Below are positions 1 to 57,666 of a stretch of 64,000 nt of DNA, piece by piece (position 1 is the stretch's first letter; each line of letters begins with the position of its first letter). Location: the NCBI GenBank assembly GCA_018062965.1, contig JAGORG010000004.1:15055-79054 (forward strand). The letters run 5' to 3'. The notes under the pieces were generated by a model that saw nothing but the letters and a program-made list of their open reading frames with translations, ran no database searches and was not told the DNA's origin. The DNA comes from Minisyncoccota bacterium. GTDB taxonomy: Bacteria; Patescibacteriota; Minisyncoccia; Phycocordibacterales; UBA5272. Both the position numbers and the translations under genes were made by a program.

Positions 1-476
1 GCGGCCTGATCCCCCAAAAAACCTGATCCTTCCTGTAACTGTTGTGCAATAGCTTCATACTGAGACGTGTCTTTTGCTAAAACTGAAAGAGATGCGCCAA
101 ATGGGTTCTCTCCGAGCTCTTCGAGTGCTTGAAGTGTCAACTGATCCCCTGCATGTTTAACTCGAAATTCTTCAAGGGCCTGCTCTCGTGATGTATAGAT
201 AACAGATTTCACCTGTGGAAGTCCAGCAAGCTTTGCTTTGACATCCATGATTTGGTTTTCGGTTGCATCTACTGTGAAATACACGCGAACATCCACCTTT
301 TCACGGATTTCGGTCAGTGTGTAATCAAAAATAGCTCTGAAAAAGAAAAACGAAGCGAGGATCGAAAGCGTGATCGTCAAAATAAAAATAGATGACAATG
401 ATACGGTACGGTTACGATAAAATCCGCGTAACCCTGCCTGAATAATCCTTCGTGTGAGTGTTGTTTTTGTTGCCAT
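1..476 (-). CDS. ftsX: Cell-division ABC transporter permease-like protein FtsX; 3' end lies outside the window.
   Basis: Reverse translation from ATG at 476 gives MATKTTLTRRIIQAGLRGFYRNRTVS... with an FtsX-like N-terminus, TM segment and extracytoplasmic domain. It lies directly downstream of ftsE on the same strand. Confidence 0.6.
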   Translation of the reverse strand, partial: MATKTTLTRRIIQAGLRGFYRNRTVSLSSIFILTITLSILASFFFFRAIFDYTLTEIREKVDVRVYFTVDATENQIMDVKAKLAGLPQVKSVIYTSREQALEEFRVKHAGDQLTLQALEELGENPFGASLSVLAKDTSQYEAIAQQLQEGSGFLGDQA

Positions 477-481
477 AAATA

Positions 482-1162
482 TTACATTGCGAACTTACCT
501 GATTTTTGATCACGGATAACACGACCGTCTTCCATAGTGATAACGCGACGACCGAGATTGTCCACGATGCCTTTGTTGTGAGTAGTCAAAATAACTGTAG
601 TACCGAGATCGTTTATCTTTTTGAGAATCTGTACGATATCGTAGGTATTAAGTGGATCAAGGTTCCCTGTTGGTTCATCGGCGATGATGATTTCTGGACG
701 ATTGATAATAGCTCGAGCAATCGCAACACGCTGCTGCTCTCCACCTGAAAGCTGGTGCGGGAAATGATGCATCTTGTCTTTCAAGTCAACAAGATCAAGA
801 ACGTGTGGAACATCTTCTGCGATGTCATCATCGTGTTTTCCTGCTGCTTCCATAGCAAACGCAACATTTTCGTACGCGGTTTTGTTTGGGATGAGGCGAA
901 AGTCTTGGAACACAACTCCGACTTTGCGGCGATAGTTTGACATACCGTTGCCACGAAGTTTGTGAATGTCTTCTGAGTGAAATGAAACCTTCCCTTCGGT
1001 TGGGTGCTCTTCTGCAAGAAGTAGTTTGATAAGTGTTGTTTTTCCAGCACCTGAGTGTCCTACGATAGAGACGAGTTCACCTGGTTGTATTGTGAGGGAA
1101 ATATCTTCGAGAACTTTATTTCCATTGTCGTACTCTTTAGAAACGCGGTCAAAGTAAAGCAT
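482..1162 (-). CDS. ftsE: Cell-division ABC transporter ATP-binding protein FtsE.
   Basis: Walker [13 protein letters not shown] signature [14 protein letters not shown] and Walker [13 protein letters not shown] are present. The start [11 protein letters not shown] is typical of FtsE. The ORF-track start at 1228 was trimmed to ATG 1162. Confidence 0.85.
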
Positions 1163-1262
1163 ATCTTCTATTGTAACACACGCAACAGATGCTTTGTGAC
1201 ATCCTGTGCATAAACAAAACCCCCTCACGATGTGAAGGGGTTTTGTAAGGTAAACCTCGTTT

Positions 1263-3514: not shown

Positions 3515-4396
3515 TTAGAGAGTTTTCTCAGCTTCTATAAATGCATCCAATTCCCCTCGTTCAAGTACCGCCTCTACATTGCTTGTTTCTACATCAGTTC
3601 TGTGGTCTTTGACCATTTTGTATGGATGAAGAACATATGAACGTATCTGATTCCCCCATTCAATTTCCATGGTTTTACTGATTTGTCTACCTTCTATCTC
3701 TGCTTTGCGTTTTTCTTCTTCCAATTTAAAGAGTTTTGCAGACAAAATCTCAAGCGCTTTTTGCTTGTTTCGTTCCTGTTCGCGCTCTGTTGCCACATAC
3801 ACTGCAATATTTGTCGGAATATGCACGATACGCACTGCTGTTTCGCGTTTGTTCACATTTTGCCCGCCTGGACCGGATGATTTTGATGTTTCGATACGAA
3901 TCTCGTCAGGTAGGATAGGTTTGCGTTCTGCTTGCGGGATAACTGGAAGCACTTCAACGAGTGCAAAAGATGTATGTCGCTTTGCCTGCGCATTAAACGG
4001 TGAAATACGCACCAGACGATGCACCCCAGATTCGTTCTTGAGGTTTCCGTATGCACCTTTCCCGTCGATCTCAATAGTTAGATTACGATACCCGCCATGG
4101 TCGTTTTTGTTGTCGTGAAGCGTTGTGTATGAGTACCCTTGCCGTTTGAAGTACGCATCATACATTTGAAAAAGCATATATGCGAAATCTTCACTGTCAT
4201 CTCCACCTGCTCCGGCTAGGATAGTCAGCACAGCGTTCCCACGATCCAAAGAAGAAACCCCGTCACGTTTGTCTTTGAGTTCTTTGATACGTTTGATGGT
4301 TTCCTGAGCTTTTTCTTTATCACTCCAAAAATCTACCTCATTCATGCGGGCTTCGAGCTCTACTATTTCTAGGTCTATATCTGAAGTGTTGTCCAT
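3515..4396 (-). CDS. prfB: Peptide chain release factor 2, compact form.
   Basis: SPF tripeptide (RISPFNAQ) and GGQ motif (SGPGGQNVNK) are present. It is only 293 aa and lacks most of domain 1. No programmed +1 frameshift site is visible; an upstream terminator hairpin sits at 4417-4440. Confidence 0.9.
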   Translation of the reverse strand: MDNTSDIDLEIVELEARMNEVDFWSDKEKAQETIKRIKELKDKRDGVSSLDRGNAVLTILAGAGGDDSEDFAYMLFQMYDAYFKRQGYSYTTLHDNKNDHGGYRNLTIEIDGKGAYGNLKNESGVHRLVRISPFNAQAKRHTSFALVEVLPVIPQAERKPILPDEIRIETSKSSGPGGQNVNKRETAVRIVHIPTNIAVYVATEREQERNKQKALEILSAKLFKLEEEKRKAEIEGRQISKTMEIEWGNQIRSYVLHPYKMVKDHRTDVETSNVEAVLERGELDAFIEAEKTL

Positions 4397-9844: not shown

Positions 9845-10513
9845 TTATTTTCCTATTTTATTTTCTTTCTTTGCGCGATACGCTTCGATCAGTTTATGAT
9901 TTCCTGACAAAAGGACTTTTGGTACACGGTACTTCTTTCCTTTATATTCATATACTTCTGGTCGGGCGTAGATTTCGTGGGATGCGATACGGTTCTCTTC
10001 GAGAGACGCTTCGTCGTTAAGTGTTCCTTTTATTTGACGTGTAATTGCATCAATACAAACCATTGCAGGAAGCTCTCCTCCTGTGAGCACATAGTTACCA
10101 ATACTCCACTCTTTGGCTTTCAAAATTTTCTTTACACGAGCGTCTATCCCTTCATAACGACCGCAAATAAAAACAATATCGGTGTATTTTGTCGCAACAT
10201 TCTTTGCTAATGTATTTGAAAACATATCTCCACCTGGATTAAACATCACAAAGAGGATTTTTGTATTCTTTTTTCGGGCAAGTTTCTTTTCGATTTTTGT
10301 AACACAGTTTAGTATTGGATCTGCCCACATAACCATTCCAGGTCCACCACCGTATGGTTTACCATCAACGCGTCTGTGTTTGTCGGTTGTGTATTCACGC
10401 AGTGCATATGTATGAATTTCTATAAGCTTGTTTTCTACAGCACGGGAAATAATCGACTCAGCAAAATACGAGTCGAGCATGTTTGGGAAAATAGTAACCA
10501 CGTGATATCTCAT
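9845..10513 (-). CDS. trmD: tRNA (guanine37-N1)-methyltransferase.
   Basis: The N-terminus MRYHVVTIFPNMLDSYF...GKPYGGGPGMVM is a typical TrmD SPOUT knot. It lies in the conserved rpsP-KH-trmD neighbourhood. Confidence 0.9.
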   Translation of the reverse strand: MRYHVVTIFPNMLDSYFAESIISRAVENKLIEIHTYALREYTTDKHRRVDGKPYGGGPGMVMWADPILNCVTKIEKKLARKKNTKILFVMFNPGGDMFSNTLAKNVATKYTDIVFICGRYEGIDARVKKILKAKEWSIGNYVLTGGELPAMVCIDAITRQIKGTLNDEASLEENRIASHEIYARPEVYEYKGKKYRVPKVLLSGNHKLIEAYRAKKENKIGK

Positions 10514-13982: not shown

Positions 13983-14100
13983 AATTCCTTCTACTATACC
14001 ACATGTGACATATATTTCATTTGATCTTTACAGAAAATTGACACCCTAGAAAAAAGTTGTAGTATATGAAATATTACAATTGTTCTTTAAGGAGCCGAGA

Positions 14101-14511
14101 ATGAGACTCAACCCGTATGTTTTTTGGGCAATCAGTATCTTGCTTACTGCTCTTCAACTTTTTATCCATATGAATATCGCCCGTCGACTACTCCCGATGG
14201 TACGTAAGGCGCACGAGCTTACACGTAATCAACGTATCAATCTCATTGCAGATGCAGATCTTCAAACACAACGAGCCAGATACGGGAGTTTGTTTATTTT
14301 ATTTGTGATTTACTTGCCCAGCGTCCCCTTTCTCATACCGAAGGAAGAATCAATCTGGTCGGGTTTTATATTCATGTTAGTATGCAACGCCCAAATATTC
14401 ATCATTCGGGTTGCTAGTAATCATGCAAAAATCGTCGCGATACAACTCAATAAATTGATACTAAGCGACCCAGAAGCCTACATTGCCTATATCCAAAAAA
14501 GACGACCCTAA
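14101..14511 (+). CDS. Hypothetical membrane protein.
   Basis: AAGGAG lies 6 nt before ATG 14101. Three hydrophobic helices are predicted. A terminator hairpin sits at 14527-14548. Confidence 0.55.
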   Translation: MRLNPYVFWAISILLTALQLFIHMNIARRLLPMVRKAHELTRNQRINLIADADLQTQRARYGSLFILFVIYLPSVPFLIPKEESIWSGFIFMLVCNAQIFIIRVASNHAKIVAIQLNKLILSDPEAYIAYIQKRRP

Positions 14512-14548: not shown

Positions 14549-16786
14549 TTATACTACATGCGCTACATCTTTGAAGTTAATGGAGAGTAGTTTAGATGCA
14601 CCTTCTGCGCCTATTGTGACACCGTAGAGCATGTCACAATGATTCATCGTTTCGCGATTGTGTGTAATCACAAGAAGTTTAGACTTTTCAGCAAGTCGTC
14701 CAAGCATGTGACCGTATTTGCGCGCATTATGCTCATCAAGCGGAGCATCTGTTTCATCGAGCACCATAAATGGAGGCGGTGTAAGAGATGACATAGCAAA
14801 TAAGAGCGCAATAGAGGTGAGTGCTCGTTCCCCTCCTGAGAACATAGCGAGCTCTTGCACTTTTTTACTTGGAAGTTTTACTTCAATATCAACGCCTTGC
14901 TCTTTTGTTTGCTCACCATCTTCGTCGACTTTGATAATATCCATAAGCGTTAGTTTTGCCTTGCCACCATCAAATACCTCTGCAAAGAAATCACTAAAAC
15001 TCTTTGAAACATGCTCAACCCCTGATGCAAAACGTTCTTTGAGCTGCACAGAAAGATCATCAATAAGTGCGAGTAATTTTCCTTCTGTTTCTTTAATATC
15101 CGCAAGCTCTTTGCTTAAGTATTGTTCTCGTTCTACGGTTAGACGGTACTCTTCACGAACCTCAGCTGCATTTGGGATACCTGCTTCTTCTATTTTTATT
15201 TTTGAACGCTCTATTGCACGCATGAGATCTGTCATAGGGAGTGTTTTGTATACATCATGCACAGCTGTTTCTTTGTATCCAAGTATTTCTCTGCCGACAA
15301 TAACAGCACCTTCTGAAAGGAGAGCGTCAAAGCGCTCTTTACGCATAGCAACTTCCGCCTCTTCCTGTTTACGAAGCGCAATCGTAGATTCAAGTTCACG
15401 TAGCTTGCTCTCTAAGAGCATTTTCTTCTTTTCCTCTTCATGAAGTGAGATAAGCGTATTTTGAGCAACTGAGTCTAGAGTGTCTATCTTTTCCTGTAAT
15501 GCCTCAATGTCGCTTTTTAGACCCCGCTCTTTTTGTTCATGCTCTTGTATCTCGTCATTAGCGCGAGCAATAGAACTACGAAGTTTTTCTTTTTTATCTT
15601 CATCGGTCTGGCTACCTGCTTGTGCAAAAAATGCATCTGCATGGGACGAAAGAGATTCGGTATGTGTTTTTGCAAGTGTTGCATCCCATATGTCGAGTGC
15701 TTTTTTGAGTGAATTTATACCAGATGTAAACGTTGTCCCTGCCTCCACAAAAGCATCACGAGGGATAACAACATCTTTTCGTACATCATCTTGATTAAGC
15801 TCTCGAACAAGATACCCCTTTTCTGCTTCTAATCGCCCAATTGTTTTTGTGATTTGCTCTTTACGTTCAAGAAGCGATCGCAGTTCTGCTTGTAGTGTTT
15901 GTTTTTCATTACGAGAAACTGTGTGCACATCTCGGTTAGATGATTGATAGATAGCAAGCTCTTTTTTGATGGAATCTGTGATAAGTGAAAGTGATACCGA
16001 AGACCCAGCTTCACGGATTTTTTCTACACGTAGAGCTATGTCGTGCTCTTCTCGATTAAAATATGCAACTAAAAGATTCCCGAGAAGTATTCGTTCTTGT
16101 TCTTTTGATTCTAGTTTTTCAACTTGTCGTTTGAGGTGGAGTAGGTGTGGTGCAATTTCTTTACGCAATAGTTCAACTTCATGCACATGTATTTTTACTT
16201 TCTCCAACTTTCGTCGAGATTCGTTCAGTCGAATATGATATACACGCAAGCCAAGTGCATCTTCGAGAGCTTCTTTGCGTTCTTTTGGAGAAGCGAGTAA
16301 GATTCTATCTGCTTCGCCTTGGTTGATGATTGTATGAGCACTCCCACCGATACCAGCAAAGGCAAGTAACTCCTGAACGTCTTTGAGGCGTACTTTTGCA
16401 TCGTTTAACGTATAGTCACTTGTACCATCAGCATAGATGACACGAGATAACACCAGTTCATCATACACAAGGTATGGAGCGAGTTCATCACTTGCGTGAT
16501 GTGTTGCAACATTTGTATGTTTGTCGCGATTATCAATCACCATTGTTACAGATGCACGAGACATTCCCGGTAACATATGAGAACCTTTGAAAATCAGGTC
16601 TGCACCCTGTTTACCTCGCATAGACTTCATCGACTGTTCACCAAGTACGAATCGAATAGCCTCTGCTACGTTTGATTTACCAGAACCATTTGGCCCAACA
16701 ACACCAGTAACTTGATGTGTGACATCAAGTGTTGTTTTTTTGGCGAATGATTTGAACCCGTGAAGTGTGATGTGCGAAAGCCGCAT
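14549..16786 (-). CDS. smc: SMC-family chromosome-segregation ATPase, short (745 aa).
   Basis: N-terminal Walker A GPNGSGKSN, long coiled-coil, and C-terminal signature LSGGERALTSIALLFA with Walker B VLDETDAPLD. Confidence 0.8.
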   Translation of the reverse strand: MRLSHITLHGFKSFAKKTTLDVTHQVTGVVGPNGSGKSNVAEAIRFVLGEQSMKSMRGKQGADLIFKGSHMLPGMSRASVTMVIDNRDKHTNVATHHASDELAPYLVYDELVLSRVIYADGTSDYTLNDAKVRLKDVQELLAFAGIGGSAHTIINQGEADRILLASPKERKEALEDALGLRVYHIRLNESRRKLEKVKIHVHEVELLRKEIAPHLLHLKRQVEKLESKEQERILLGNLLVAYFNREEHDIALRVEKIREAGSSVSLSLITDSIKKELAIYQSSNRDVHTVSRNEKQTLQAELRSLLERKEQITKTIGRLEAEKGYLVRELNQDDVRKDVVIPRDAFVEAGTTFTSGINSLKKALDIWDATLAKTHTESLSSHADAFFAQAGSQTDEDKKEKLRSSIARANDEIQEHEQKERGLKSDIEALQEKIDTLDSVAQNTLISLHEEEKKKMLLESKLRELESTIALRKQEEAEVAMRKERFDALLSEGAVIVGREILGYKETAVHDVYKTLPMTDLMRAIERSKIKIEEAGIPNAAEVREEYRLTVEREQYLSKELADIKETEGKLLALIDDLSVQLKERFASGVEHVSKSFSDFFAEVFDGGKAKLTLMDIIKVDEDGEQTKEQGVDIEVKLPSKKVQELAMFSGGERALTSIALLFAMSSLTPPPFMVLDETDAPLDEHNARKYGHMLGRLAEKSKLLVITHNRETMNHCDMLYGVTIGAEGASKLLSINFKDVAHVV

Positions 16787-16861
16787 GATAGTAAAAGTCT
16801 ATCATGCATACGAGACTACTTGGTGTGTGTAAACAAAAAACCTACGCATTGCGTAGGTGTG

Positions 16862-17216
16862 TGCATACTCATATCGTCCTGTGTTTGGCAGGTAAACGAT
16901 TCGGTTTGACGCTTCTTGCAGATCCGGCGTGATAGGTATTTGCAAAATACCTGAAACGTCGGGGCAAGTTTTTCCATGGAGATTCCCCATGAAAGAAACT
17001 TAGGTCCGGTCGACGATGAGAGGTGTGTTGCTTATTCTTTGAACACGGTTCGTCAAGCGCACCACACCCAACGTTTCTTGAAGTTGTAGGCTTTTTCCTG
17101 AGCCGAACCGGACCAGGACCCGCTACAACCGAAACAACTTGCTCGCTCGTGCCGTGACGGTGCACGACACGGTAACCACGCCCATCAGCCAAAGCTGCCA
17201 CAAAAATTCCAATCAT
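16862..17216 (-). other. GC-rich element of uncertain nature: either a small highly basic ORF (16869..17216) or a structured RNA.
   Basis: GC content is far above the flanks. A minus-strand AGGAG RBS lies 6 nt before ATG 17216. The 115-aa product is Arg-rich and basic. A minus-strand intrinsic terminator (CCTACGCAATGCGTAGG + T6) sits at about 16835-16860. Many internal helices are possible. Confidence 0.3.
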
Positions 17217-17263
17217 GATGACTCCTCTGTGTGTGAAAAACCTTATGCTACACTACACCTTAT

Positions 17264-18040
17264 ATGACACTTTTGCAATCGATATATCTTGGGATTATCG
17301 AAGGTCTCACCGAGTTTCTTCCTATATCTTCCACGGGACACTTGATCCTTGTTTCGCACCTTTTGGAAATTCCTCAAGACACATTCCTTGTTACATTTGA
17401 AATAGCGATTCAACTCGGTGCGATATCTGCAGTAGTATTTCTCTTTTGGAAACGACTCATGCGCATTTCGATGCTACAAAAACTTATAGTTGGTTTTATA
17501 CCAACAGCAATCATTGGTTTTTTGGTCTACCCATATATAAAAGTACTTCTCACTAACCCGATCATCGTTGGTGTTACTCTTTTTATTGGCGGAATCATTA
17601 TTCTGTTTGCAGAAAACTATTACTACAAACAACAGCTTCTTGGTGCGGTTGAGCTACGTCACGAGGTTTCAATGAAGCAAGCATTCCTCCTTGGAATATA
17701 TCAAACTATCGCCATGATTCCTGGCGTTTCTAGGTCTGGCGCCATTATTGTTGGCGGGTTATTTATGAACATGGAACGCAAACTGCTCACCGAATTTACG
17801 TTTTTGCTCGCTGTTCCTACTATGTCAGCAGCAACCCTCTACTCGCTCTACAAAAACCACGAAGTAGTCATGCAAACTGGGAACATATCGCTATTGCTTA
17901 CTGGGGCACTAACATCTTTTATCGTCGCGACACTGGTCATCAAACTATTCCTAGATTACATCAAACGCCATACGTTTGTGATTTTTGGTATCTATAGAAT
18001 AATCTTAGGTATTATCGTCTGTTTGATTTTCCTTCCGTAA
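17264..18040 (+). CDS. uppP: Undecaprenyl-diphosphatase.
   Basis: The N-terminus LGIIEGLTEFLPISSTGHLIL is a BacA/UppP signature, with about 8 TM helices. Confidence 0.9.
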   Translation: MTLLQSIYLGIIEGLTEFLPISSTGHLILVSHLLEIPQDTFLVTFEIAIQLGAISAVVFLFWKRLMRISMLQKLIVGFIPTAIIGFLVYPYIKVLLTNPIIVGVTLFIGGIIILFAENYYYKQQLLGAVELRHEVSMKQAFLLGIYQTIAMIPGVSRSGAIIVGGLFMNMERKLLTEFTFLLAVPTMSAATLYSLYKNHEVVMQTGNISLLLTGALTSFIVATLVIKLFLDYIKRHTFVIFGIYRIILGIIVCLIFLP

Positions 18041-26780: not shown

Positions 26781-27233
26781 TTATATGTCTTTTTTTACTT
26801 CATCTGCATGTACAGCGGATTTTACTTGTTCGTATATTTTTGCGATACTCCCCTTTTCATCAATAAGAAAACTCATACGATCGATTCCCACATATTCACG
26901 CCCCATGAACTTCTTTAATTTCCACACACCGTAACTTTTGATAACGTCAGTACTTTCATCTGATAGTAGCGGAAACTGAAGAGAAAACTTATCTGCAAAT
27001 TTCTTGTGACTTTTTACAGAGTCTTTGCTCATACCCAAAATAACTAGCCCACTATCTGCAAATGACGTGTACCCATCACGAAAGTTACACGCTTCGGTAG
27101 TACATCCTGGTGTATCATCTTTTGGATAGAAATAGAGCAGCACCTTTTTACCTTTGTATTGGTCAAGCCTGTGCAGTACACCGTCTTGATCTGGAAGAGA
27201 AAATGATGGAGCAACGTCTCCGACTTTTAGCAT
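26781..27233 (-). CDS. bcp: Peroxiredoxin (Bcp / AhpC-TSA family).
   Basis: The Bcp-type active site is in PKDDTPGCTTEAC. Confidence 0.85.
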   Translation of the reverse strand: MLKVGDVAPSFSLPDQDGVLHRLDQYKGKKVLLYFYPKDDTPGCTTEACNFRDGYTSFADSGLVILGMSKDSVKSHKKFADKFSLQFPLLSDESTDVIKSYGVWKLKKFMGREYVGIDRMSFLIDEKGSIAKIYEQVKSAVHADEVKKDI

Positions 27234-34922: not shown

Positions 34923-35147
34923 ATGAACATTCGGACTTTGATTTTCGGACTTCTTCTGATCTTTTCAGGAACCCATGCGCTCGCCGATCACAGGCATCAC
35001 CGACACCATCGCCACTACTATCAACCACCCGAGCCCCGTGTTGTTTGTTGGTGGGAACACATCCCTACAGGCCGTTACTTCATTGATCGCTATGGACGTA
35101 GACACGACCAATTCACCGTTGTACGTCGATGCCATCAACGGTGGTAA
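34923..35147 (+). CDS. Small secreted His-rich protein.
   Basis: AGGAGA RBS lies 7 nt before the ATG. Signal peptide MNIRTLIFGLLLIFSGTHALA is followed by DHRHHRHHRHYY and two Cys; 74 aa. Confidence 0.45.
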   Translation: MNIRTLIFGLLLIFSGTHALADHRHHRHHRHYYQPPEPRVVCWWEHIPTGRYFIDRYGRRHDQFTVVRRCHQRW

Positions 35148-38224: not shown

Positions 38225-39253
38225 TTATGCGATAGTATATTCTCCAGCGACTTTTCTAAAATGCTTGCTATTTTGAAGGTTAACCAATACAGTGTTTGGC
38301 TTTACGATACGCTTCGCGAGAACTCGTTTAACTATTTCATCCTTTGAGAGCGGACGTCCAGCGTCTTTGAGAACTTCTGTGATAACATCACGGACAACTC
38401 CACCGGTATGCCCCCAGTCTTTCAAACCATACATACCACGGCCAACGAGTACAAAACGTGGATCCTTGATAAGTTCGTTGTGGCATGTGGCAACGTGAGC
38501 GCGCTTACCAAATGTCTTATTGATTTCAGTTGCAACTTCTTTGAAGTGCATTGGCTCTCCTTTACGGCGCATGATCAAATATGCGTAATCCTTGATCCCA
38601 CGAGCCTTTACATGAGGTGAAGATGTTCGCCCCCATTCATTGAGCTGGTTCTTTCCGATAACCTTAGAAAGTGCGAGATATCGATAGATAATATCTTTAT
38701 TGTTTTTGTATTCACCGATAAGATCTGTTAGGTGACTAAGGAATCGTTCGTAGATTTCTTCTTCTTTAACCAAATCTTCTTCATCAATTGATGTATACAA
38801 TTTGCCAAGCGCTTCACGGACATGGGTTGCTGTATCGTCATCAGTTGTAAAATGCGCTTGATAGTGATCACTTTCCTTGTGCTTGATAAAATCTTCACCT
38901 AGAGCGAGATATAGATTGATATGGTTCTGAATAACAGGATCCTTTGAAATATGACGCATGAGGTGCTCCTCTGAAACAACGGCACCGAGTTCTTTTACAA
39001 TTGCTTTCAATTCATCAAAAACAAAAGCATGTTCTTTGAAATCCTTAGATTTCTTGATAGTTGCAAGTGCGAAGTTTTCAATCTGACGAACACGTTCGCG
39101 AGTAATATCGTATGTCTTGCCGATAGCTTCTAGCGTCATGCGTTCACCTTTTTCAAGGCCATAACGGTTAACCACAATCTCGCGTGTACGAGGATTGAGG
39201 CTTGTAAGAAGCTTCTTTGAGACCGCTTTTGGTTTGAAAGTAATTCCTGACAT
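38225..39253 (-). CDS. Sigma-70 region-4-like HTH plus C-terminal HARE-HTH domain protein.
   Basis: The N-terminus LNPRTREIVVNRYGLEKGERMTLEAIGKTYDITRERVRQIENFALATIKK is classic sigma-70 region 4. The C-terminus ...YAYLIMRRKGEPMHFKEVATEI...RFVLVGRGMYGLKDW fits the HARE-HTH pattern of the RpoE-delta N-domain. Confidence 0.65.
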   Translation of the reverse strand: MSGITFKPKAVSKKLLTSLNPRTREIVVNRYGLEKGERMTLEAIGKTYDITRERVRQIENFALATIKKSKDFKEHAFVFDELKAIVKELGAVVSEEHLMRHISKDPVIQNHINLYLALGEDFIKHKESDHYQAHFTTDDDTATHVREALGKLYTSIDEEDLVKEEEIYERFLSHLTDLIGEYKNNKDIIYRYLALSKVIGKNQLNEWGRTSSPHVKARGIKDYAYLIMRRKGEPMHFKEVATEINKTFGKRAHVATCHNELIKDPRFVLVGRGMYGLKDWGHTGGVVRDVITEVLKDAGRPLSKDEIVKRVLAKRIVKPNTVLVNLQNSKHFRKVAGEYTIA

Positions 39254-39295
39254 GTAATTAAAGTACATCTATTCTACCAGAACTTGCCAAAAACG

Positions 39296-42166
39296 TCAAA
39301 TTACGATATTTATAAGCTTGTTTGGTACGAAGATAACCTTTTTAGGGGTAGTCTGAGCCACATATTTTGTGTACACATCCAGCTTCGCAACCTTAGAAAG
39401 CACTGTGTTTTCATCAGCATCTCGAGCAACGGTAATAGTTCCTCGCAACTTTCCAGAAATCTGAATAGCAAGTGTTACCTCTTTTTCAACAAGTAATGTC
39501 TGATCTGCAACTGGCCAAGAAGATCTGTGAACGGACTCCGCATACCCTCTTTCGTTCCACAGCTCTTCTGCAAGAAATGGAGCAAATGGTGCGAGCAACT
39601 TGATGAACGTATCAAAATCACTAGCACTCACAGTTCCGCGCTTTTCAAACTCGTTAGCGCAAATCATGAGTTGTGAAATACACGTATTAAACGTCATTGC
39701 TTCTACCCCTTCTGTAACCTTACTAATAGTTTGGTGCACTATAGAAAGCGAACCAGTTGTTTCTGTATCAACCTGCTTTGAAAGTTTGTATACTTTATCC
39801 AAAAATCTTTCAACCCCAACTATTGCTTTATCGTCCCATGCAACAGACTGATCAAATGGACCAATGAACATTTCATAAACTCGAAGTACATCCGCACCAG
39901 AAGATGTAATAATCTGATCTGGATTCACAACATTGCCGAGTGACTTACTCATCTTTACCCCACCAGCACCAAGGATCATTCCTTGAGAAGTTCGCTTGTA
40001 GTACGGCTCACTTGTTGGCACTAACCCGATATCAAACAAGAATTTATACCAGAATCGAGAGTACAAAAGGTGTAGCGTTGTATGCTCCATCCCACCGTTG
40101 TACCAATCCACAGGAAGCCATGCCTTAAGAAGTTCTGGGTCCCCAAGAGCTGTCTCATTTTTGGGATCGATATATCGCATAAAGTACCACGAAGATCCCG
40201 CCCACTGCGGCATCGTATCTGTTTCGCGACGAAATACTTCACCTGTTTCGTCTGATACAAAATGTCCTGTTGCGTCGATTTTTCCTTTGATATTGACCCA
40301 CTCAGAAATAGTTGCAAGTGGTGATTCACCGTTATCTGTTGGCTCATATTTATCAACCATTGGAAGCACTATAGGAAGCTCACTTTCTGCAACTGGATAC
40401 ATCGTCCCTTCTTTGTCATACACAACAGGAATAGGTTCTCCCCAATATCGTTGACGAGCAAATACCCAGTCACGAAGCTTGGACTTTATTACAACTCGAC
40501 CATGAAGTGCTTCTGTGATTTTATTACGAGCAACTTGAGAAGTGAGCCCGTTATGCTCACCGGAGTTAATAAGCGCACCATCTTCTGTGATATATACCGA
40601 ATCTGATGCTAATTCTTTCTCCCAAATACCCCATTCACTACAAATAAATTCTGACGGGAATTCATTTTTATGAACCCACATTTTTTCATACCGTGTAGTT
40701 TCTTCTTGAGAAGGCGTCTCTTCAGTAGTCGTGTCACTCATATCTAAAACCACTGCTTTACAATATGAAATTCTATTTTGCTTTTTATGGTTTGCACTAT
40801 ACTCACTTCTAACAACTGAAAGTTCTCTAATAAAAGTAACGTTTGAAATGCCAGCTTCTTCTTTAAGTTCTCTTAATGCAGCATCACGTGCACTTTCACC
40901 ATTTTCTATCCCCCCGCCGACAAAAGTAACCCATGGGAGCTCTTTCCATTTAAGCATTAAATATGTTTGGTCTTTTGGATTACGAAGTATAATCTGCACC
41001 ATTTGCCGCTCTATTGTTGGCCAGTCTTTTACAAACGGATTCTTTAAGTCGTAACGAACAGGTGCAATAACTTGTTTCACTGTAATCCCATATTTTTTTG
41101 CAAACTCTCCATCTCGCTCATCGTGAGCTGGAACAGCCATAATAGCCCCCGCCCCATACTGAGGCAATACATAATCCGCAATAAAGACCGGGACAGACTC
41201 TTTAGTTGCAGGATTGATTGCTGTCACACCTTCTAACTTAACACCAGTTTTTTCTTTACCTTCAGCGGAACGATCTATATCAGGTTTTGAAACTGCTTCG
41301 TCGATATATGACCTAACCTCTTGGCTGTTAGTAACAGCTCCCATATCAAGGAGCTGCTTTACACGTGGATGTTCTGGTGCAAGCACACAATAGGTACAAC
41401 CAAAAATAGTGTCGGCACGGGTAGTGAAGATGGTAAACGGAATACTTGTATCGCCTGCTTGTAATGTAAAATCAATTTCGCTTCCTTCTGAAAGCCCAAT
41501 CCAATTACGCTGCTGAATTTTTATTTTCTCTAGATAGGTTGTCTCATCGAGATCCTTATCAAGCCTCTCAGCGTATTTTGTAATAGCAAGCATCCACTGT
41601 TCTTTATTTCTTTTTTCAACCAAGGTTCCACATCGTTCACATGCACCATCCACTACTTCTTCGTTTGCGAGCACGCATTTATCTTTTGGACACCAGTTTA
41701 CTGGCATTTCTTTTTTGTATGCCAGCCCTTGTTCGTATAGTTTAAGGAAAATCCATTGCGTCCACTTGTAGTACTGCGGGTCTGTTGTTTCAAACCTTCT
41801 CTCCCAATCAAACGAAAACCCACAATTCTTCATCTGACGCTCAAAGTTGTCTATATTCTTACGTGTTGTAATACTTGGGTGAATACCTGTCTTGATCGCA
41901 TAGTTCTCAGCAGGAAGCCCAAATGAGTCATACCCAATAGGAAAGAGAACTTCATACCCCTGGCGACGAGATGCGCGTGCGATAACATCCATAGCAGTGT
42001 AGCTACGAACATGCCCCACATGGAGACCTTCACCTGAAGGATACGGGAATTCAACGAGCAAATATCGCTTCTTTTTGTCGCTATGAATATCTGTTCTATA
42101 GATACCGTCTTCTTCCCATTTTTTAGTCCAATACTCAGCTATCTTGATATGGTCGTATGCGCTCAT
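39296..42166 (-). CDS. leuS: Leucine--tRNA ligase with an embedded NUDIX hydrolase domain.
   Basis: HIGH (HVGH) and KMSKS (KMSKS) motifs. CP1 editing motif TTRADTIFG and AVPAHDERD are present. A ~160-aa insertion (aa ~371-530) carries the Nudix box GGGIENGESARDAALRELKEEAGI. Confidence 0.95.
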   Translation of the reverse strand: MSAYDHIKIAEYWTKKWEEDGIYRTDIHSDKKKRYLLVEFPYPSGEGLHVGHVRSYTAMDVIARASRRQGYEVLFPIGYDSFGLPAENYAIKTGIHPSITTRKNIDNFERQMKNCGFSFDWERRFETTDPQYYKWTQWIFLKLYEQGLAYKKEMPVNWCPKDKCVLANEEVVDGACERCGTLVEKRNKEQWMLAITKYAERLDKDLDETTYLEKIKIQQRNWIGLSEGSEIDFTLQAGDTSIPFTIFTTRADTIFGCTYCVLAPEHPRVKQLLDMGAVTNSQEVRSYIDEAVSKPDIDRSAEGKEKTGVKLEGVTAINPATKESVPVFIADYVLPQYGAGAIMAVPAHDERDGEFAKKYGITVKQVIAPVRYDLKNPFVKDWPTIERQMVQIILRNPKDQTYLMLKWKELPWVTFVGGGIENGESARDAALRELKEEAGISNVTFIRELSVVRSEYSANHKKQNRISYCKAVVLDMSDTTTEETPSQEETTRYEKMWVHKNEFPSEFICSEWGIWEKELASDSVYITEDGALINSGEHNGLTSQVARNKITEALHGRVVIKSKLRDWVFARQRYWGEPIPVVYDKEGTMYPVAESELPIVLPMVDKYEPTDNGESPLATISEWVNIKGKIDATGHFVSDETGEVFRRETDTMPQWAGSSWYFMRYIDPKNETALGDPELLKAWLPVDWYNGGMEHTTLHLLYSRFWYKFLFDIGLVPTSEPYYKRTSQGMILGAGGVKMSKSLGNVVNPDQIITSSGADVLRVYEMFIGPFDQSVAWDDKAIVGVERFLDKVYKLSKQVDTETTGSLSIVHQTISKVTEGVEAMTFNTCISQLMICANEFEKRGTVSASDFDTFIKLLAPFAPFLAEELWNERGYAESVHRSSWPVADQTLLVEKEVTLAIQISGKLRGTITVARDADENTVLSKVAKLDVYTKYVAQTTPKKVIFVPNKLINIVI

Positions 42167-42377: not shown

Positions 42378-43478
42378 TTACCTGCCGTAGTACATGTCAG
42401 AAGTAATAACCCTCTTAAAACATGTCTCTCCAATCCCATGATTCCAAAACGGTGAAACATCTCCTGAGTAGTAGTAGTTTGCTACTGAGTACATTTTTTC
42501 AGAGTACACAGGCGTTCCGCGTCCATTGTATTCTCGAACTGTGTCAAATGTAGCACAGAGCTCAAACGTTGCAGGAGATACCATTTCTTTTTTACTTGTA
42601 AGCGCATTCACTCGAATTGTAGGCTGCTGAATAACGCGGTATACATATGATTCTTTAGTCACAGGATCTTGTGGAACTGTGTATCCTTGGAAAGCGTCAT
42701 TGAGTTCACTCAGCTGAACTGGGAGCCTGTCTGTGTTTTGAAGACGATTAAAGACTTCTTGTTGAATTCGTGAAATATCTGATAGACGAGTGTCATCTAT
42801 TCTCATAAGACGCATTTCTTTTGGTGTGCCGATAATTGAAACACTCCAGACAAGAGAACCAAGAACAAATAGCGAAGCTGCTACTGCAATTAACTTTGGA
42901 AGACGTGTGGTCTTTGAATAGTCACGTCGAAGTGCGTAAACATAGTATCCACATACCGCTCCGGCTATCACAAACACCGTGAGGGCCTTAAACCCAAAAC
43001 GTACAGTGAGCTCTCCTCCTAAGAATGTATAGATAGTTGCAACGAGTGTACCTAGCAAAGTGCAGATAGTTACAAAGAGCGTTGTGTATACAAATACCTT
43101 ACGAATAAGAAGGTCTCGTTTGTACAAGAATTTCTTGATATCGTTTGATACGTAGAGTGATAATCCTAGGTAAATTGGAAACATAACCACAAGGGACGCA
43201 ATGGCCATGCGCATGTCACTTCCGTACATGTCGACATATTGTCCAACTTCAAGCACATCAATAAACTTGCGTTCGATTGCTGTAAAGAGAATTTGGATGA
43301 TATTAGTAACTGAAACAACGAGTGAGATAAAAATCCCAAGGTACACGAATACATCAAGTGCTTTTGTTTTTGATTCCATATGAGTAGTGTGTTTTGTAAT
43401 AAGCATGTATAGCAAAGTCCCCACCCCAACAATAACAAGGAGAGGTACCAGCAATGCGACAAGGATAAATATTGTCAT
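42378..43478 (-). CDS. Hypothetical polytopic membrane protein with a C-terminal soluble domain.
   Basis: About 6 TM helices then a ~170-aa hydrophilic domain. A 20-bp perfect hairpin terminator lies downstream (42196-42240). Confidence 0.65.
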   Translation of the reverse strand: MTIFILVALLVPLLVIVGVGTLLYMLITKHTTHMESKTKALDVFVYLGIFISLVVSVTNIIQILFTAIERKFIDVLEVGQYVDMYGSDMRMAIASLVVMFPIYLGLSLYVSNDIKKFLYKRDLLIRKVFVYTTLFVTICTLLGTLVATIYTFLGGELTVRFGFKALTVFVIAGAVCGYYVYALRRDYSKTTRLPKLIAVAASLFVLGSLVWSVSIIGTPKEMRLMRIDDTRLSDISRIQQEVFNRLQNTDRLPVQLSELNDAFQGYTVPQDPVTKESYVYRVIQQPTIRVNALTSKKEMVSPATFELCATFDTVREYNGRGTPVYSEKMYSVANYYYSGDVSPFWNHGIGETCFKRVITSDMYYGR

Positions 43479-43968: not shown

Positions 43969-44307
43969 TTATTCGAAGATAAATAGTGCCCAGTTTACAA
44001 TCGAAAGCACAACAGCAAAGACAAGCGCCATCCAAAATGACGGAATACTAAACCCAGGAACAATCCACGACGCAATCGTGATCATAAGTGCGTTAATAAC
44101 AAATGAGAAGAGCCCGAGCGTTACAACAGTAACAGGAAGCGTCACGACAGAAATGATAGGTTTGATTGTGTGATTGATAACAGCGAGCACAAGCGCAACC
44201 ACAAACCCAGTAAGCCCAGTACTCCAGGCAAATACAATCGGTACCCCCACCTTTGTTATGTAGCTTGTAATAAGTACTGCGATTGTTCGTACAAGTAAAT
44301 ATGTCAT
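43969..44307 (-). CDS. Phage-holin-family-4 / DUF360 (YvlD-like) small membrane protein.
   Basis: Four TM helices with the characteristic INHTIKPIISVVTLPVTVVTLGLFSFVINALMI pattern. Confidence 0.6.
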   Translation of the reverse strand: MTYLLVRTIAVLITSYITKVGVPIVFAWSTGLTGFVVALVLAVINHTIKPIISVVTLPVTVVTLGLFSFVINALMITIASWIVPGFSIPSFWMALVFAVVLSIVNWALFIFE

Positions 44308-45603: not shown

Positions 45604-46143
45604 TTAGTTGCTCCAAGGGATATTCTTTTCTTCCCGTATTTTGCAAGTTTTATTCACAAAATCTTCACGCCCAGAACCTTGTCTATACAAACCATACCGG
45701 AGAGGGTTCTTTTCCGCATACTGTTGGTGATATTCTTCTGCTCTATAAAATGGCTTTCTTTCTACAATATCAACCTGTGCAGGTACCTCATACACATGAC
45801 TTTGGTTAAGTTCCTCAATAACAGCTTCTGCAATAAGCTTTTCGTCTTCAGTTTCATAATAGATAGCAGTACGATAGCTTTCTCCCCGATCTGCAAACTG
45901 CCCACCTGCATCCGTTGGGTCAATATGGTCAATAAAAAATTGAAGTAGTTTTTTATACGATGTTTCTGAGTCGTTATATTCAACAAGAACTACTTCACGA
46001 TGACCCGCATGATTCTCGTATGTTGGACTAGTTGACGCCCCACCAGAGTACCCAGAAGTTACAGAAATCACACCTGGGGCTTCGCGCAGATCATGCTCTA
46101 CACACCAAAAACATCCACCAGCAAGAATGAGAGATTTAGTCAT
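45604..46143 (-). CDS. msrA: Peptide methionine sulfoxide reductase A.
   Basis: Active site GCFWC close to the N-terminus; 179 aa. Confidence 0.9.
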   Translation of the reverse strand: MTKSLILAGGCFWCVEHDLREAPGVISVTSGYSGGASTSPTYENHAGHREVVLVEYNDSETSYKKLLQFFIDHIDPTDAGGQFADRGESYRTAIYYETEDEKLIAEAVIEELNQSHVYEVPAQVDIVERKPFYRAEEYHQQYAEKNPLRYGLYRQGSGREDFVNKTCKIREEKNIPWSN

Positions 46144-49163: not shown

Positions 49164-49430
49164 AAGATATATATAGTAATTAGAATGTAGGGAACAATAA
49201 ACAAAGAATTCACAGCACCAATAAACTAATAACTAACGTAAAGATACATATACAGTTTAACAGATTACAGAGTTCAGTCGTGGTGGATAATCAGACGATT
49301 CAGGATATATTCACAATACCGATATTTGCACCATCACGCAACTTGACTTATATATAGATATATTGTATAATATAAAGATGTTCCATGTGTTGTCAACACT
49401 GTCTGTTGCCGCATGGAAAAGGAGATCTTT

Positions 49431-49709
49431 ATGAAGTCCGTACCCATTCTTGGGTTGAAGATTTTTGCAACTGCGGTAGCGGTGTGGCTTGTGATGCTTG
49501 CGCTTCGCGCAGACCCCAAGTTTGCTACATGGATTGCGGCAACTGTCGCAATGGGTGCCTACCGCAACGAGCTCACAGAGTTCGTGCTTGACCCATTCGC
49601 AAAAGACGTACTCGGCATGCAGCTCCCGACGCCAAGCTGGATCAGTAAGCCCAACCTGACCGCTCTACTTGCGTCTCTGGCGGCCGGACTGAGCCTGCTG
49701 TTTGCTTGA
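49431..49709 (+). CDS. Small GC-rich membrane protein.
   Basis: Consensus promoter (TTGACT 49343-49348, TATAAT 49366-49371). AAGGAG RBS lies 8 nt before ATG 49431. Two TM helices. Terminator at about 49715-49742. GC content is well above the flanks. Confidence 0.5.
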   Translation: MKSVPILGLKIFATAVAVWLVMLALRADPKFATWIAATVAMGAYRNELTEFVLDPFAKDVLGMQLPTPSWISKPNLTALLASLAAGLSLLFA

Positions 49710-49828
49710 CCAACCACCGACCATCCCAGGTCGGTTTTTATATTTTTGACAAAACTATACATATAGTGTAGTTTTAATCCCGGCTGTACTTAGGCATATC
49801 GCCTTCAATCAACATACGGAGAAACACC

Positions 49829-52146: not shown

Positions 52147-52296
52147 GATAATGGTGATATATACCCAAACTCTACCATACAAAATAAAAAGCGCTTCCTT
52201 CGCTACTTCCCCATGCGGGGATATGTAAACGAGGAAGCGCGGTGGTCGACCGTCAGATGGAGACAGGGCTCAGATCAATCGACAGTGACCGGGCGA

Positions 52297-52614
52297 TCAG
52301 ACATCGCTCGGGTCGGTACTGCCCGTGCCCAGGTGTGTGGGCGGAGCTTGCGCGGTCAGGCAGCTGGAACCGCCACCATTGGCCGAAGTGATGCCGCCCG
52401 AGCCGCCACCGTTGATCGTCTTCATGCCGGTCACGTCACTGGAGCCACCGCCGGGGTTCATCTTGGTGATACCGTCTGCACTCGCAATGGACACGCCAGT
52501 GATCATGAGGGCGCCGCCCTGGAACGTGTTGATGTTGGTCGGGGGAGCTTGGCCGGCAGATGCCACGCCAGCAGCGCAAGCCAGAACGGCGAGCGCAATC
52601 AGGGACTTTTTCAT
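52297..52614 (-). CDS. Secreted glycine-rich small protein in a GC-rich islet.
   Basis: AGGAGA RBS before ATG 52614. Signal peptide MKKSLIALAVLACAAGVASA. Gly/Ser-rich repeats follow (GGGSSDVTG, GGGSGGITS, GGGSS). Confidence 0.5.
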   Translation of the reverse strand: MKKSLIALAVLACAAGVASAGQAPPTNINTFQGGALMITGVSIASADGITKMNPGGGSSDVTGMKTINGGGSGGITSANGGGSSCLTAQAPPTHLGTGSTDPSDV

Positions 52615-52779
52615 GTCGTTTCTCCTGGGTTCAATAATCACGCGGAAATTTTTTTGTACAAGCATAAAGGTATTCCGATAACCTTTACCTACCCAAACTC
52701 TAGCACACAGGAATCATGCCATACAAGAGTTATGCACATATTCTTTTCTTACATTTTTTTCTGTTACAATACATCACAC

Positions 52780-55313: not shown

Positions 55314-55421
55314 TATGTATAATATAATATGACATTTGTCGTTAGGACGACATGTCAGTTGTACCTCGTTTTTTTTAATTCAACCCAAGCCCTTCAAGGC
55401 TTTTACTTCTGGAGATATCAC

Positions 55422-56420
55422 ATGGGAAGTGGAAAATCCTTTCGTCGCGAAGACAAGCGCGCCATCCCGCGCGGCCCCGGCCCTCAAGCCAGTCGTGCCG
55501 CAATCCTGTCCCGTCAGTCTGAGACCCGCCACCAACCGGCACCTGCATGGACCTGGATCACAGGTGAAGACGCCTTGGTGAAAGCTTGCCTGGATATGCT
55601 GCATGGCATTCCTGGCATGTACCCGATCTTCGGCATCAAACTGGAAATCCAGGTGCGCCAAAGCAAAACCGAAGACTACCCAGTCCTCGTTTACTACGGC
55701 GCCGAAGCGAGCGACAGGCACGAAGGCCTACACGAGACGGATATGAGGGATGGCTTTGCTATGAGCCCTGACTCCTTGAAGTGGAACGTGACCAAAACCA
55801 CGCGCTTCAAAACTGAGTGGCATGAACTACTCACTCGCACGCTCCTGGGGCAACCTGAGATGCAAATGGCACGCCAAGACTTCTTCGCAGAACAAGAGAA
55901 GCTCGCTAAGCAACAAGATGAACAGGCTCGCGAGGCACAAACCAAGCGAACCAGTCTCGTCGCTCGCCTGCGAAACCAAGTGGCTACGCCCATGACGGAA
56001 CCCGCCGACCTGCCGATCGCCGAAAAAGCGCGCCCGCAAAGGCGCCAGAAACCGGAGTACCCGGAAGTCGACCACATCAGTGAACTGATCGACGGTGACA
56101 TCTGCGTCTTTTACCACTATTCGGGGACAACCCTGAAGACCTGCGAAGGCGACAAGAGGCAACTCGTGGTCCGCATCAGTGGGCTGAAGGACGAAAATCA
56201 CCCGATGTTCCGTGCATCCCAGCTGAACGTGTTCGCCTTCCTCGACGAGGTCGTCGAGGAGCCGGAAAACCCCAAGCTCGAGACCGAAATGCAGCGTGAA
56301 GGTCAAGCATTCCGCGTGTGGCTGCGCGAAGAAGGTATCCTGAACACACCGCAGCAGTCTACTGAGGGTGAACCCTCGGGAAACGTGGTGGGCACCGCGA
56401 CAGAATTGTCGACTTCCTGA
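55422..56420 (+). CDS. Hypothetical protein (GC-rich, foreign codon usage), gene A.
   Basis: GGAGA RBS lies 7 nt before ATG 55422. GC3 is very high relative to neighbours. Basic N-terminus MGSGKSFRREDKRAIPRGPG; no recognisable domain. A terminator hairpin sits at 56479-56527. Confidence 0.6.
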   Translation: MGSGKSFRREDKRAIPRGPGPQASRAAILSRQSETRHQPAPAWTWITGEDALVKACLDMLHGIPGMYPIFGIKLEIQVRQSKTEDYPVLVYYGAEASDRHEGLHETDMRDGFAMSPDSLKWNVTKTTRFKTEWHELLTRTLLGQPEMQMARQDFFAEQEKLAKQQDEQAREAQTKRTSLVARLRNQVATPMTEPADLPIAEKARPQRRQKPEYPEVDHISELIDGDICVFYHYSGTTLKTCEGDKRQLVVRISGLKDENHPMFRASQLNVFAFLDEVVEEPENPKLETEMQREGQAFRVWLREEGILNTPQQSTEGEPSGNVVGTATELSTS

Positions 56421-56563: not shown

Positions 56564-56637
56564 ATATATTAGCCCTTTGAACGATTCTGTTCATTGGATT
56601 CTTTGAAAACTCCCCTGTTGAATTGAAGGAGAAAGTA

Positions 56638-57666
56638 ATGGCAAAGACCAAAACAACCCAGCAAAAGAAATCCCCACATGGGAAAGTAAACCCCGTGAAC
56701 ATGGGAACTCCGGGCGCAAACATCGCCCGAAGCGAAGCTGGTCGTTTGCACAAGAAGCAGGTGCAAAAAGTGCGCCATAATAGCGCTGTCGCACAACGTG
56801 AAGCAGCGCAGCATGTCGAGCATCGCAAGCTGACTATCCAGTTCGACTCTCTGTCCCGAAACTACGAAGCAATGCTTCGTGGCACACAGGGCAAATCCTT
56901 CGGACTGAGACTGAACAAGTCATTCGAAAACTATTCTGCTTTTGGCATAATCAGAATGGAAATCCGTATCTGCGGCAAACACAACTTGCCGTCGATCATG
57001 GTGACTGGTTCAACCTTCGACCCCATCCCGGAGAGCGAAGGGAACTTCTTGCCATTGGTTACGCTGGCGCACAAGACCCTGAAAGACGTTGGTCAACCGA
57101 AGCACGTCCTCGACTGGCAGGTGGAACTCCATTCGACGCTCCGCCATTTCCTGAAAGACGAACTCGGAGCAAACCCTCCCTTCAGCTCCAAACTGACACC
57201 GCCTGTTCACATCGTTGCTCCGCAGCTTCAACTCCGACCGCAACGCACCGCAGATCACGAGTCTGCAACTGCACAAGCAAATAAAAGCGAAGAAGGGGTG
57301 GATGTCACCGGCCACAAGCCGCTGACAGGCACCCAATTCTTCGCAAAGGATACATCTGGCATCTACACCCACGAAAAAAATGGGTGTCTCGCCTACTTCC
57401 GGTTGGAGCGTATCGCCGGCGTGCAATCGTTCAAACTGGTTGCAGTGGACGAAGGCCATCCGCTCATGCACTGCCTGGAGCACCACGACACCGTCCATGT
57501 GCACCTGCAGGACCTACCGGCGAACAACCGCCCATATGGTGCACTGCAGGAAATGCGCAACGCGCGCGAGTGTGTACGCCAGTACCTGCGCCAGGTCGGC
57601 ATGAGTTTCGGCATCAAACCGAAAATGAAACATGGCTCCCCTGAACAGCAGCAATCAGTGGCCTGA
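56638..57666 (+). CDS. Hypothetical protein (GC-rich, foreign codon usage), gene B.
   Basis: GAAGGAGA RBS lies 5 nt before the ATG. Basic N-terminus MAKTKTTQQKKSPHGK...; no recognisable domain. An intrinsic terminator sits at about 57692-57728. Confidence 0.6.
   Translation: MAKTKTTQQKKSPHGKVNPVNMGTPGANIARSEAGRLHKKQVQKVRHNSAVAQREAAQHVEHRKLTIQFDSLSRNYEAMLRGTQGKSFGLRLNKSFENYSAFGIIRMEIRICGKHNLPSIMVTGSTFDPIPESEGNFLPLVTLAHKTLKDVGQPKHVLDWQVELHSTLRHFLKDELGANPPFSSKLTPPVHIVAPQLQLRPQRTADHESATAQANKSEEGVDVTGHKPLTGTQFFAKDTSGIYTHEKNGCLAYFRLERIAGVQSFKLVAVDEGHPLMHCLEHHDTVHVHLQDLPANNRPYGALQEMRNARECVRQYLRQVGMSFGIKPKMKHGSPEQQQSVA

Follow-up and report, generated by a model that had tools for sequence, protein, structure and literature searches.

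Allelic cassettes under diversifying or balancing selection are known from the pherotype genes comC and agrD and from immunity or surface-antigen alleles. A repeat-based case from the candidate phyla radiation is the hypervariable gene of a Gracilibacterium (PMC6851277). The small gene described here lies between smc and uppP in the window, by which we mean the whole 64,000-nt stretch of DNA that was analysed. It resembles such cassettes in that its flanks are near-identical and the alleles between them deeply divergent, most strongly towards the middle of the gene, and in that both pN and pS lie far above those of the neighbours. It differs from them in that it has neither a signal peptide nor repeats and is accompanied by no partner gene (processing enzyme, receptor or toxin), and its pN/pS stays below 1, giving no sign of positive selection. 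ORFan small proteins provide a second comparison: like the product of this gene they are short and basic, belong to no detectable family, are for the most part disordered by prediction, occur only in a narrow lineage and are often missed by gene callers, whereas the present gene shows protein-level selection across four divergent alleles and a high divergence relative to its flanks.

Two further kinds of element share outward features with the locus. Housekeeping RNAs (RNase P RNA, tmRNA, 6S RNA and SRP RNA; ~100-400 nt) resemble the islet in GC-richness, size, possession of a terminator and, for the allele in the window, a strong fold, but the islet has no covariance-model or ARAGORN match, its helices are not conserved and its substitutions are codon-phased. 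The PAP2 phosphatase gene (PF01569) of related genomes occupies the same slot in the same orientation and with a similar footprint (a slot of ~480 nt against a gene of 462-483 nt), but the small gene has no significant sequence similarity to it and neither its catalytic motifs nor its transmembrane helices. On the comparisons reported below, we consider it about 85% probable that the islet is a stand-alone minus-strand gene for a 115-aa basic, lineage-specific protein, and not a structured RNA.

Results

A small minus-strand unit in the smc-uppP gap

The islet lies within the 477 bp that separate smc (14549-16786, minus strand) from uppP (17264-18040, plus strand). Pfam matches to SMC_N (5.9e-59) and BacA (8.1e-73) bear out these flanks, which had been named in an earlier sequence-only reading of the locus. 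The gap contains a 115-codon minus-strand ORF, from which uppP diverges and downstream of which smc lies. The parts of the unit are as follows.

17222-17228, minus strand: Shine-Dalgarno site AGAGGAG, 5 nt before the ATG (AGGAG at 17222-17226)
16869-17216, minus strand: CDS of a 115-aa, very basic orphan protein, stop codon included; open in all alleles, with codon-phased substitution
17097-17216, minus strand: N-terminal 40 codons (MIGIFVAALADG...), conserved wherever the allele is of the 115-aa type and lost from the 70-aa allele through a deletion of ~100 nt
16896-17096, minus strand: conserved protein core, residues 41-107, found by protein alignment in every allele including the 70-aa one
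16830-16858, minus strand: intrinsic terminator of the small gene, hairpin 16840-16858 plus T-run, beginning 10 nt past the stop codon

The good ribosome-binding site, the ATG and the Arg-rich ORF that had been read from the letters are thus all present, and the encoded protein has a pI of 11.3 and contains 12.2% Arg. Its core carries the motifs TSRNVGxGA, RPxLS, PWK, RYF, SYHxG and RSxKP. In the DNA alignment the AGGAG is invariant in all alleles. Moreover, the deletion in the L099 allele leaves AAGGAG 7 nt before a new in-frame ATG, whereby the spacing between ribosome-binding site and start codon is rebuilt. The clean minus-strand terminator expected at about 16835-16860 was likewise found: its 9-nt arms (16840-16848 and 16850-16858), which the scoring treats as 8 pairs around a 3-nt loop, are followed by TTTTTGTTT on the minus strand. 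In L099 the terminator stem retains its pairing by two-sided changes (CG to UA and AU to GC), and among the helices predicted with RNAalifold from the allele alignment only the terminator hairpin covaries. Since this hairpin alone keeps pairing through double changes, the compensatory changes show a unit that would be transcribed on the minus strand and ended before smc. A promoter scan recognised no promoter for the small gene itself.

Base composition

A sharp upward shift in composition had also been described at the islet. The shift is real but modest: the ORF has a GC content of 50.3% against a window mean of 43.2%, with a local peak of 0.555 over 200 nt or 0.58 over 150 nt, and 16 other islets within the window reach a GC of at least 0.54. 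By codon position, GC1/GC2/GC3 of the ORF are 0.56/0.53/0.42, compared with a GC2 of 0.31-0.38 and a GC3 of 0.30-0.41 in the neighbouring genes. Because GC1 and GC2 are raised while GC3 is host-like, the GC excess is attributed to amino-acid composition; it stems from Arg, Gly, Pro, Ala, Ser and Thr codons and involves no foreign base composition. The codon usage of the ORF is atypical for the genome (log-odds of -0.14 per codon, vs +0.16 to +0.46 in the neighbours), although despite this value its frame has the best log-odds codon score among the six frames.

Several of the other islets and small ORFs of the window were inspected as well. The most GC-rich islet, at 52163-52666 (0.69 in 150 nt), spans roughly the first 150 codons of a 351-aa ORF, in which the DUF4446 domain starts only at residue 205, and contains a 122-aa antisense ORF. 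Another stretch, over 2 kb long and with GC reaching 0.64-0.66, holds the adjacent 363- and 347-aa ORFs at 55329-56420 and 56623-57666, both on the plus strand and without a Pfam match; these may be foreign or fast-evolving genes. The 665-nt gap between long ORFs at 49164-49828 has a GC-rich core at 49431-49763 (up to 0.60), yielded no Rfam match even at E <= 1, and includes a 98-aa ORF (49413-49709) that has no Pfam match. A 74-aa ORF at 34923-35147 (plus strand), again without a Pfam match, combines a signal-peptide-like N-terminus with a following HRHHRHHRH run.

Divergent alleles of an orphan gene

An exhaustive HMMER search with the 115-aa protein against 1.84 billion representative proteins returned two real relatives. 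P0121 (locus L097) is a 115-aa protein that matches over its full length at 67% identity, and P0123 (loci L099-L104) is a 70-aa protein that matches residues 41-107 at 54% identity. Word-indexed protein and family-profile searches added only P0127 (locus L105; 115 aa, 67% identity) and the window's own 'hypothetical protein' cluster. A profile search for remoter relatives recovered the same four clusters and nothing else, and outside its own alleles the protein has no relatives in the searched set. Matches to P0122, P0124 and P0125 were rejected as spurious; these are giant repeat proteins whose scores were summed from repeat matches of ~4 bits. All relatives are syntenic, lying between uppP and smc, and for P0121, P0123 and P0127 alike the order is uppP, ORF, smc. 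The 70-aa allele, in which a ~100-nt deletion takes the first 40 codons, was found on 12 contigs. Since these contigs come from several datasets, residues 41-107 are the indispensable part of the protein. Taken together, the searches show an orphan gene confined to one species-level Parcubacteria/Patescibacteria-like lineage, with at least four deeply divergent alleles between invariant flanks.

The gene is already in GenBank, annotated as 'hypothetical protein E6Q68_08595' on the metagenome-assembled contig SSFP01000123.1; of 10 near-identical contigs, however, 8 carry no gene call for the ORF. What stands out is the strong divergence of its alleles between conserved flanks. In a separate scan of the genome collection with UppP, only this same contig (L001/L009) was retrieved, filed as a Polynucleobacter sp. 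MAG, and UppP homologues at 58-67% identity carry the names Candidatus Parcubacteria, Pacebacteria and Patescibacteria. Because gene content and UppP relatives point to Parcubacteria/Patescibacteria, the Polynucleobacter label is probably a binning error. A metagenome scan with a UppP alignment used patterns that were too generic and gave 80 distant UppP loci (38-51% identity), which were useless for synteny.

We compared substitution in the small gene with that in smc, uppP and atpD of the same strain pairs. The three larger genes have a pS of 0-0.29 (0.10-0.29 between divergent alleles) and a pN of 0-0.02, whereas in the small gene pN is 10-60 times and pS 3-5 times higher than in the flanking genes. 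Within it, pS is ~0.4 at the ends and ~1.0 in the middle. The 47-nt spacer upstream, which holds the ribosome-binding site and the uppP leader, is near-invariant, and the 60 nt from the terminator to smc are invariant in all alleles. This is the pattern of alleles that are old or were imported, with recombination having made their flanks uniform; simple decay is disfavoured because codon phase is respected.

A diversity-generating retroelement was also considered. A blastn search with the element in the 64-kb window and all fetched loci found no second copy that could serve as a template repeat, and the allele differences are spread over all bases and include a 100-nt deletion. Neither the window nor any fetched locus contains a paralogue of the small gene. 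The sequences GGTGTAGTGTA (17248-17258, upstream) and TACACACACC (16820-16829, past the terminator) form an imperfect inverted repeat that brackets the cassette; both are invariant in all alleles, and the pairing could be due to chance in AC-rich sequence.

The slot between smc and uppP in related genomes

In the nearest outgroup (L106), whose UppP is 77% identical, smc lies only 70 nt from uppP and the slot is empty. Another relative (L092) has a 215-nt gap there, and in three more (L093, L096 and L107) the slot holds a PAP2 phosphatase gene on the same strand. Because relatives show an empty, short-gap or PAP2-filled slot, the slot is variable and the 115-aa gene specific to its own lineage. 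The suggestion that the islet was horizontally acquired, like other GC-rich islets, survives in part: a lineage-specific insertion in a variable slot agrees with it, but the GC excess comes from amino acids with a host-like GC3, and no donor was found.

Descent from the PAP2 gene was examined and rejected. The look-alikes I[FY]VA..YRV.xRH and RPDLS are short and colinear but not significant. No PAP2 similarity was detected in any frame (tblastn E >= 0.24, six-frame hmmsearch E >= 0.7, hhalign 0.5%, shuffle tests mostly p > 0.1). The Pfam search likewise gave no match to PAP2 (PF01569), and PSGH, SRx5Hx3D and transmembrane helices are absent. By eye a Kx6RP string can be seen in the window allele alone, and the other alleles do not keep it.

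Two neighbouring arrangements were noted in the relatives. Beside its PAP2 gene, L096 (UppP 74% identical) has at 2284-2538 on the minus strand a GC-rich basic ORF of 70-84 aa with its own terminator just before smc; homology of the 115-aa protein to this ORF was rejected (BLASTP E = 0.99, hhalign 2.7%). In L093 a reverse-transcriptase gene (RVT_1, 424 aa; 1-1198, plus strand) lies directly downstream of smc. The corresponding position in the window is occupied by a 143-aa ORF (14080-14511) without a Pfam match, and an equivalent of the reverse transcriptase was not seen next to smc.

Substitutions follow the codons of the ORF

The 115-codon frame is open in the window and in L003, L007, L097 and L105, and L099-L104 carry the 70-codon in-frame form, so the frame is open across all six allele types. 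No frameshifting indel occurs in the ORF even though the divergent alleles are only 58-73% identical in nucleotides, and shuffling leaves the ORF open in just 0.3% of cases. In six divergent pairs, the numbers of differences by codon position (1/2/3) were 27/25/41, 22/26/58, 23/29/55, 17/24/44, 19/25/40 and 16/26/44, an excess at third positions with chi-square p values from 0.035 to 1.2e-7. Specifically, 22/26/58 is the comparison of the window with L105 (p = 1.2e-7) and 17/24/44 that of the window with the L099 core (p = 6e-6). Near-identical strains show the same tendency: of their 15 variable sites, 10 fall at third positions (p = 0.0085) and 9 are synonymous. Nei-Gojobori estimates in the ORF frame gave a pS of 0.44-0.86, a pN of 0.19-0.32 and a pN/pS of ~0.25-0.5, whereas omega in the other two minus-strand frames was 0.8-1.9. 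The ratio ranged from 0.24 to 0.57 in successive 15-codon windows and was always below 1. These data show the ORF to be, as judged from its substitution pattern, a sequence of translated type under purifying selection, and we take the gene to be translated, although a pN/pS of 0.25-0.5 is weak constraint. The tiny basic protein that had been one of two initial proposals is accordingly the one supported, by codon-periodic substitution, by a pN/pS below 1 in this frame only, by the open frame and by the conserved ribosome-binding site and terminator.

Several properties of the locus could also be expected of a non-functional remnant, that is, of decaying DNA (for example a fragment of a dead mobile element or a relic of PAP2) whose ORF is open by chance because the sequence is GC-rich. 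The gene is an orphan with only its own alleles among the 1.84 billion proteins, its codon usage is atypical, its divergence far outpaces that of the flanks, one allele has lost sequence at either end, and its slot is empty in L106 and PAP2-filled in L093, L096 and L107. Neutral DNA, however, would diverge evenly by codon position and gain indels and stops, whereas here third codon positions change 2-3 times more often than the others (p down to 1e-7), no segment has a pN/pS as high as 1 and the frame is open in every allele type. Moreover, the ribosome-binding site and terminator have been maintained, with spacing to the ATG rebuilt after a deletion, and significant PAP2 similarity is absent in any frame. 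Weighing both sides, we regard a remnant as very unlikely.

Promoter-like motifs of smc and uppP

Candidate promoter elements were recognised from their motifs immediately before both flanking genes.

16796-16804, minus strand: extended -10-like motif TGATAGACT, separated by 9 nt from the start codon of smc
17246-17254, plus strand: extended -10-like motif TGCTACACT, separated by 9 nt from the start codon of uppP and placed in the near-invariant 47-nt spacer, which also serves as the 5' region of the small gene

In relatives, including those without an insert, smc has TGGTACACT 9-10 nt before its ATG. It therefore probably has its own promoter and a leaderless mRNA and need not depend on read-through from the small gene. 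We infer that both smc and uppP possess extended -10 promoters of their own and give rise to leaderless mRNAs. Because these promoters are assigned to smc and uppP, the small gene would be a separate monocistronic unit and not a leader of smc.

Such a leader is a further alternative: a cis-regulatory element in which an upstream ORF and its terminator control smc by attenuation or read-through. The small ORF and smc share a strand, the terminator lies 53 nt before the smc start, and the mRNA of the window allele is strongly structured. However, 115 codons under protein-level selection far exceed the known leader peptides, no conserved alternative antiterminator pairing or helix was found, and the extended -10-like motif 9 nt before the smc ATG, within the invariant 60-nt segment, recurs in relatives that have no insert. 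This explanation is accordingly highly improbable.

The same motif class was surveyed across the window. An extended -10 (TGnTAnnnT) begins 11-19 nt before the start codon in ~12 of 60 genes, mostly ones without a Shine-Dalgarno site; examples are found upstream of 3515-4396, 9845-10513, 26781-27233, 38225-39268, 39296-42166, 42378-43478, 43969-44307 and 45604-46143. Only ~12 of 60 genes have an SD-like motif. The survey suggests that leaderless mRNAs may be widespread in this genome.

No conserved RNA structure outside the terminator

The other initial proposal was an essential ncRNA in a region rich in potential helices. At Rfam gathering thresholds (RNase P RNA, tmRNA, bacterial SRP RNA, 6S RNA and 4227 others) an Infernal cmscan search of the 64 kb identified 6 tRNAs only and placed no RNA family at 16787-17263. 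The best match in a permissive Rfam scan of 16700-17350 was OmrA-B, which scored 20.4 bits where 40 are required and covered the terminator hairpin only. ARAGORN found no tmRNA within the window.

Folding was then judged against shuffled sequences. The window allele gave z = -4.54 on the minus strand (-152.4 kcal/mol) and -3.60 on the plus strand, whereas the homologous regions of the three divergent alleles gave z = -1.87, -2.23 and -0.94. The strong folding score is thus peculiar to the window allele, and the helices are not conserved in the divergent ones. When the minimum-free-energy structure of the window allele was projected on the six-allele alignment, 13 of the 55 pairs in the central helices 10-14 were unpaired in all three divergent alleles. 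The palindromic segments singled out in the initial proposal do exist.

17003-17010: inverted-repeat arm 1, GGTCCGGT, within minus-strand codons R-P-D-L
17107-17114: inverted-repeat arm 2, ACCGGACC, within minus-strand codons P-G-P-V

These inverted 8-mers are separated by 96 nt, and chance alone would give roughly one pair of this kind in 350 nt, (350^2/2)/4^8. The GGUCCGGU/ACCGGACC pair is not conserved, its partner arm being mutated in L097 and L105 and deleted in L099.

A structured ncRNA (RNase P RNA, tmRNA, SRP, 6S or a new class) on the minus strand, ended by the terminator and with an incidental ORF, would draw on the GC-rich region in an AT-rich genome, the folding energy of the window allele, the closing terminator, a length of ~380 nt similar to RNase P RNA or tmRNA, and a slight excess of two-sided changes on the window structure (11 pairs vs 6.8 in shuffles, with 13 of 500 shuffles reaching 11), but it is the least probable of the alternatives: the scans are empty save for a sub-threshold terminator look-alike, the RNAalifold covariation term is unfavourable (+6.02) with many central pairs broken in all three divergent alleles, the folding energy is allele-specific, the inverted pair is lost, ~100 nt of the supposed RNA are missing from one allele, and RNA constraint does not account for three-periodic substitution.

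Predicted properties of the protein

Searches of the 115-aa protein against Pfam, NCBIfam, PHROGs, PADLOC and PDB sequences, ribosomal and nucleoid proteins included, gave no significant match (best E = 0.034 and 1.1). AlphaFold2 with the four-sequence alignment returned a mean pLDDT of 49, a model of insufficient quality for comparing folds. Three short strands were modelled within residues 2-31 at a pLDDT of ~66-68, and almost all of the remainder fell below 50; an alignment of four sequences is too shallow for a low pLDDT to be called disorder with confidence. On the basis of the pI, the 12% Arg and the low-confidence model, we tentatively suggest that the product could be a small, largely disordered nucleic-acid-binding protein, an assignment that we hold to be possible and no better than that.

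Discussion

In the reading we prefer, the islet is a small protein-coding gene set between a divergent uppP and a downstream smc, with a Shine-Dalgarno site ahead of its 115 codons and an intrinsic terminator of its own behind them. The product is very basic and rich in Arg, Gly, Pro and Ala, a composition that explains the GC-rich look of the region. The 67-residue core is the part retained in all alleles, and the protein might, with low confidence, act as a largely disordered binder of nucleic acids. The divergence of the alleles could reflect either long-maintained allelic lineages or alleles imported by recombination, again with low confidence, and either route would agree with the gene taking part in some conflict or interaction in which diversity is an advantage. 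Such a role is raised as a possibility by the diversity pattern itself. A more specific scenario, in which a young lineage-specific protein has ancient allelic types held by balancing or frequency-dependent selection, we consider unlikely, though less so than the remnant discussed above.

The RNA-or-protein question being settled for the islet, there is no missing housekeeping RNA to annotate there. More generally, local GC-richness within an AT-rich genome of the candidate phyla radiation can be no more than the mark of a coding sequence rich in Arg, Gly, Pro and Ala, with a raised GC2 and a host-like GC3. The locus also offers a clean case in which comparative data back an orphan small protein that is mostly passed over in gene calling. 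Its biological weight is modest without an assigned function. With a non-synonymous divergence 10-60 times that of its neighbours, the gene is a candidate marker for processes that diversify strains within an uncultivated lineage. Balancing selection, if true, would point to conflict or partner interaction (with phage, host cell or competitor) of an episymbiotic-type bacterium, and the protein might belong to a new class of small basic effectors or immunity-like proteins; in that case the same slot would be filled with different small basic genes in related species, as the unrelated ORF of L096 may illustrate.
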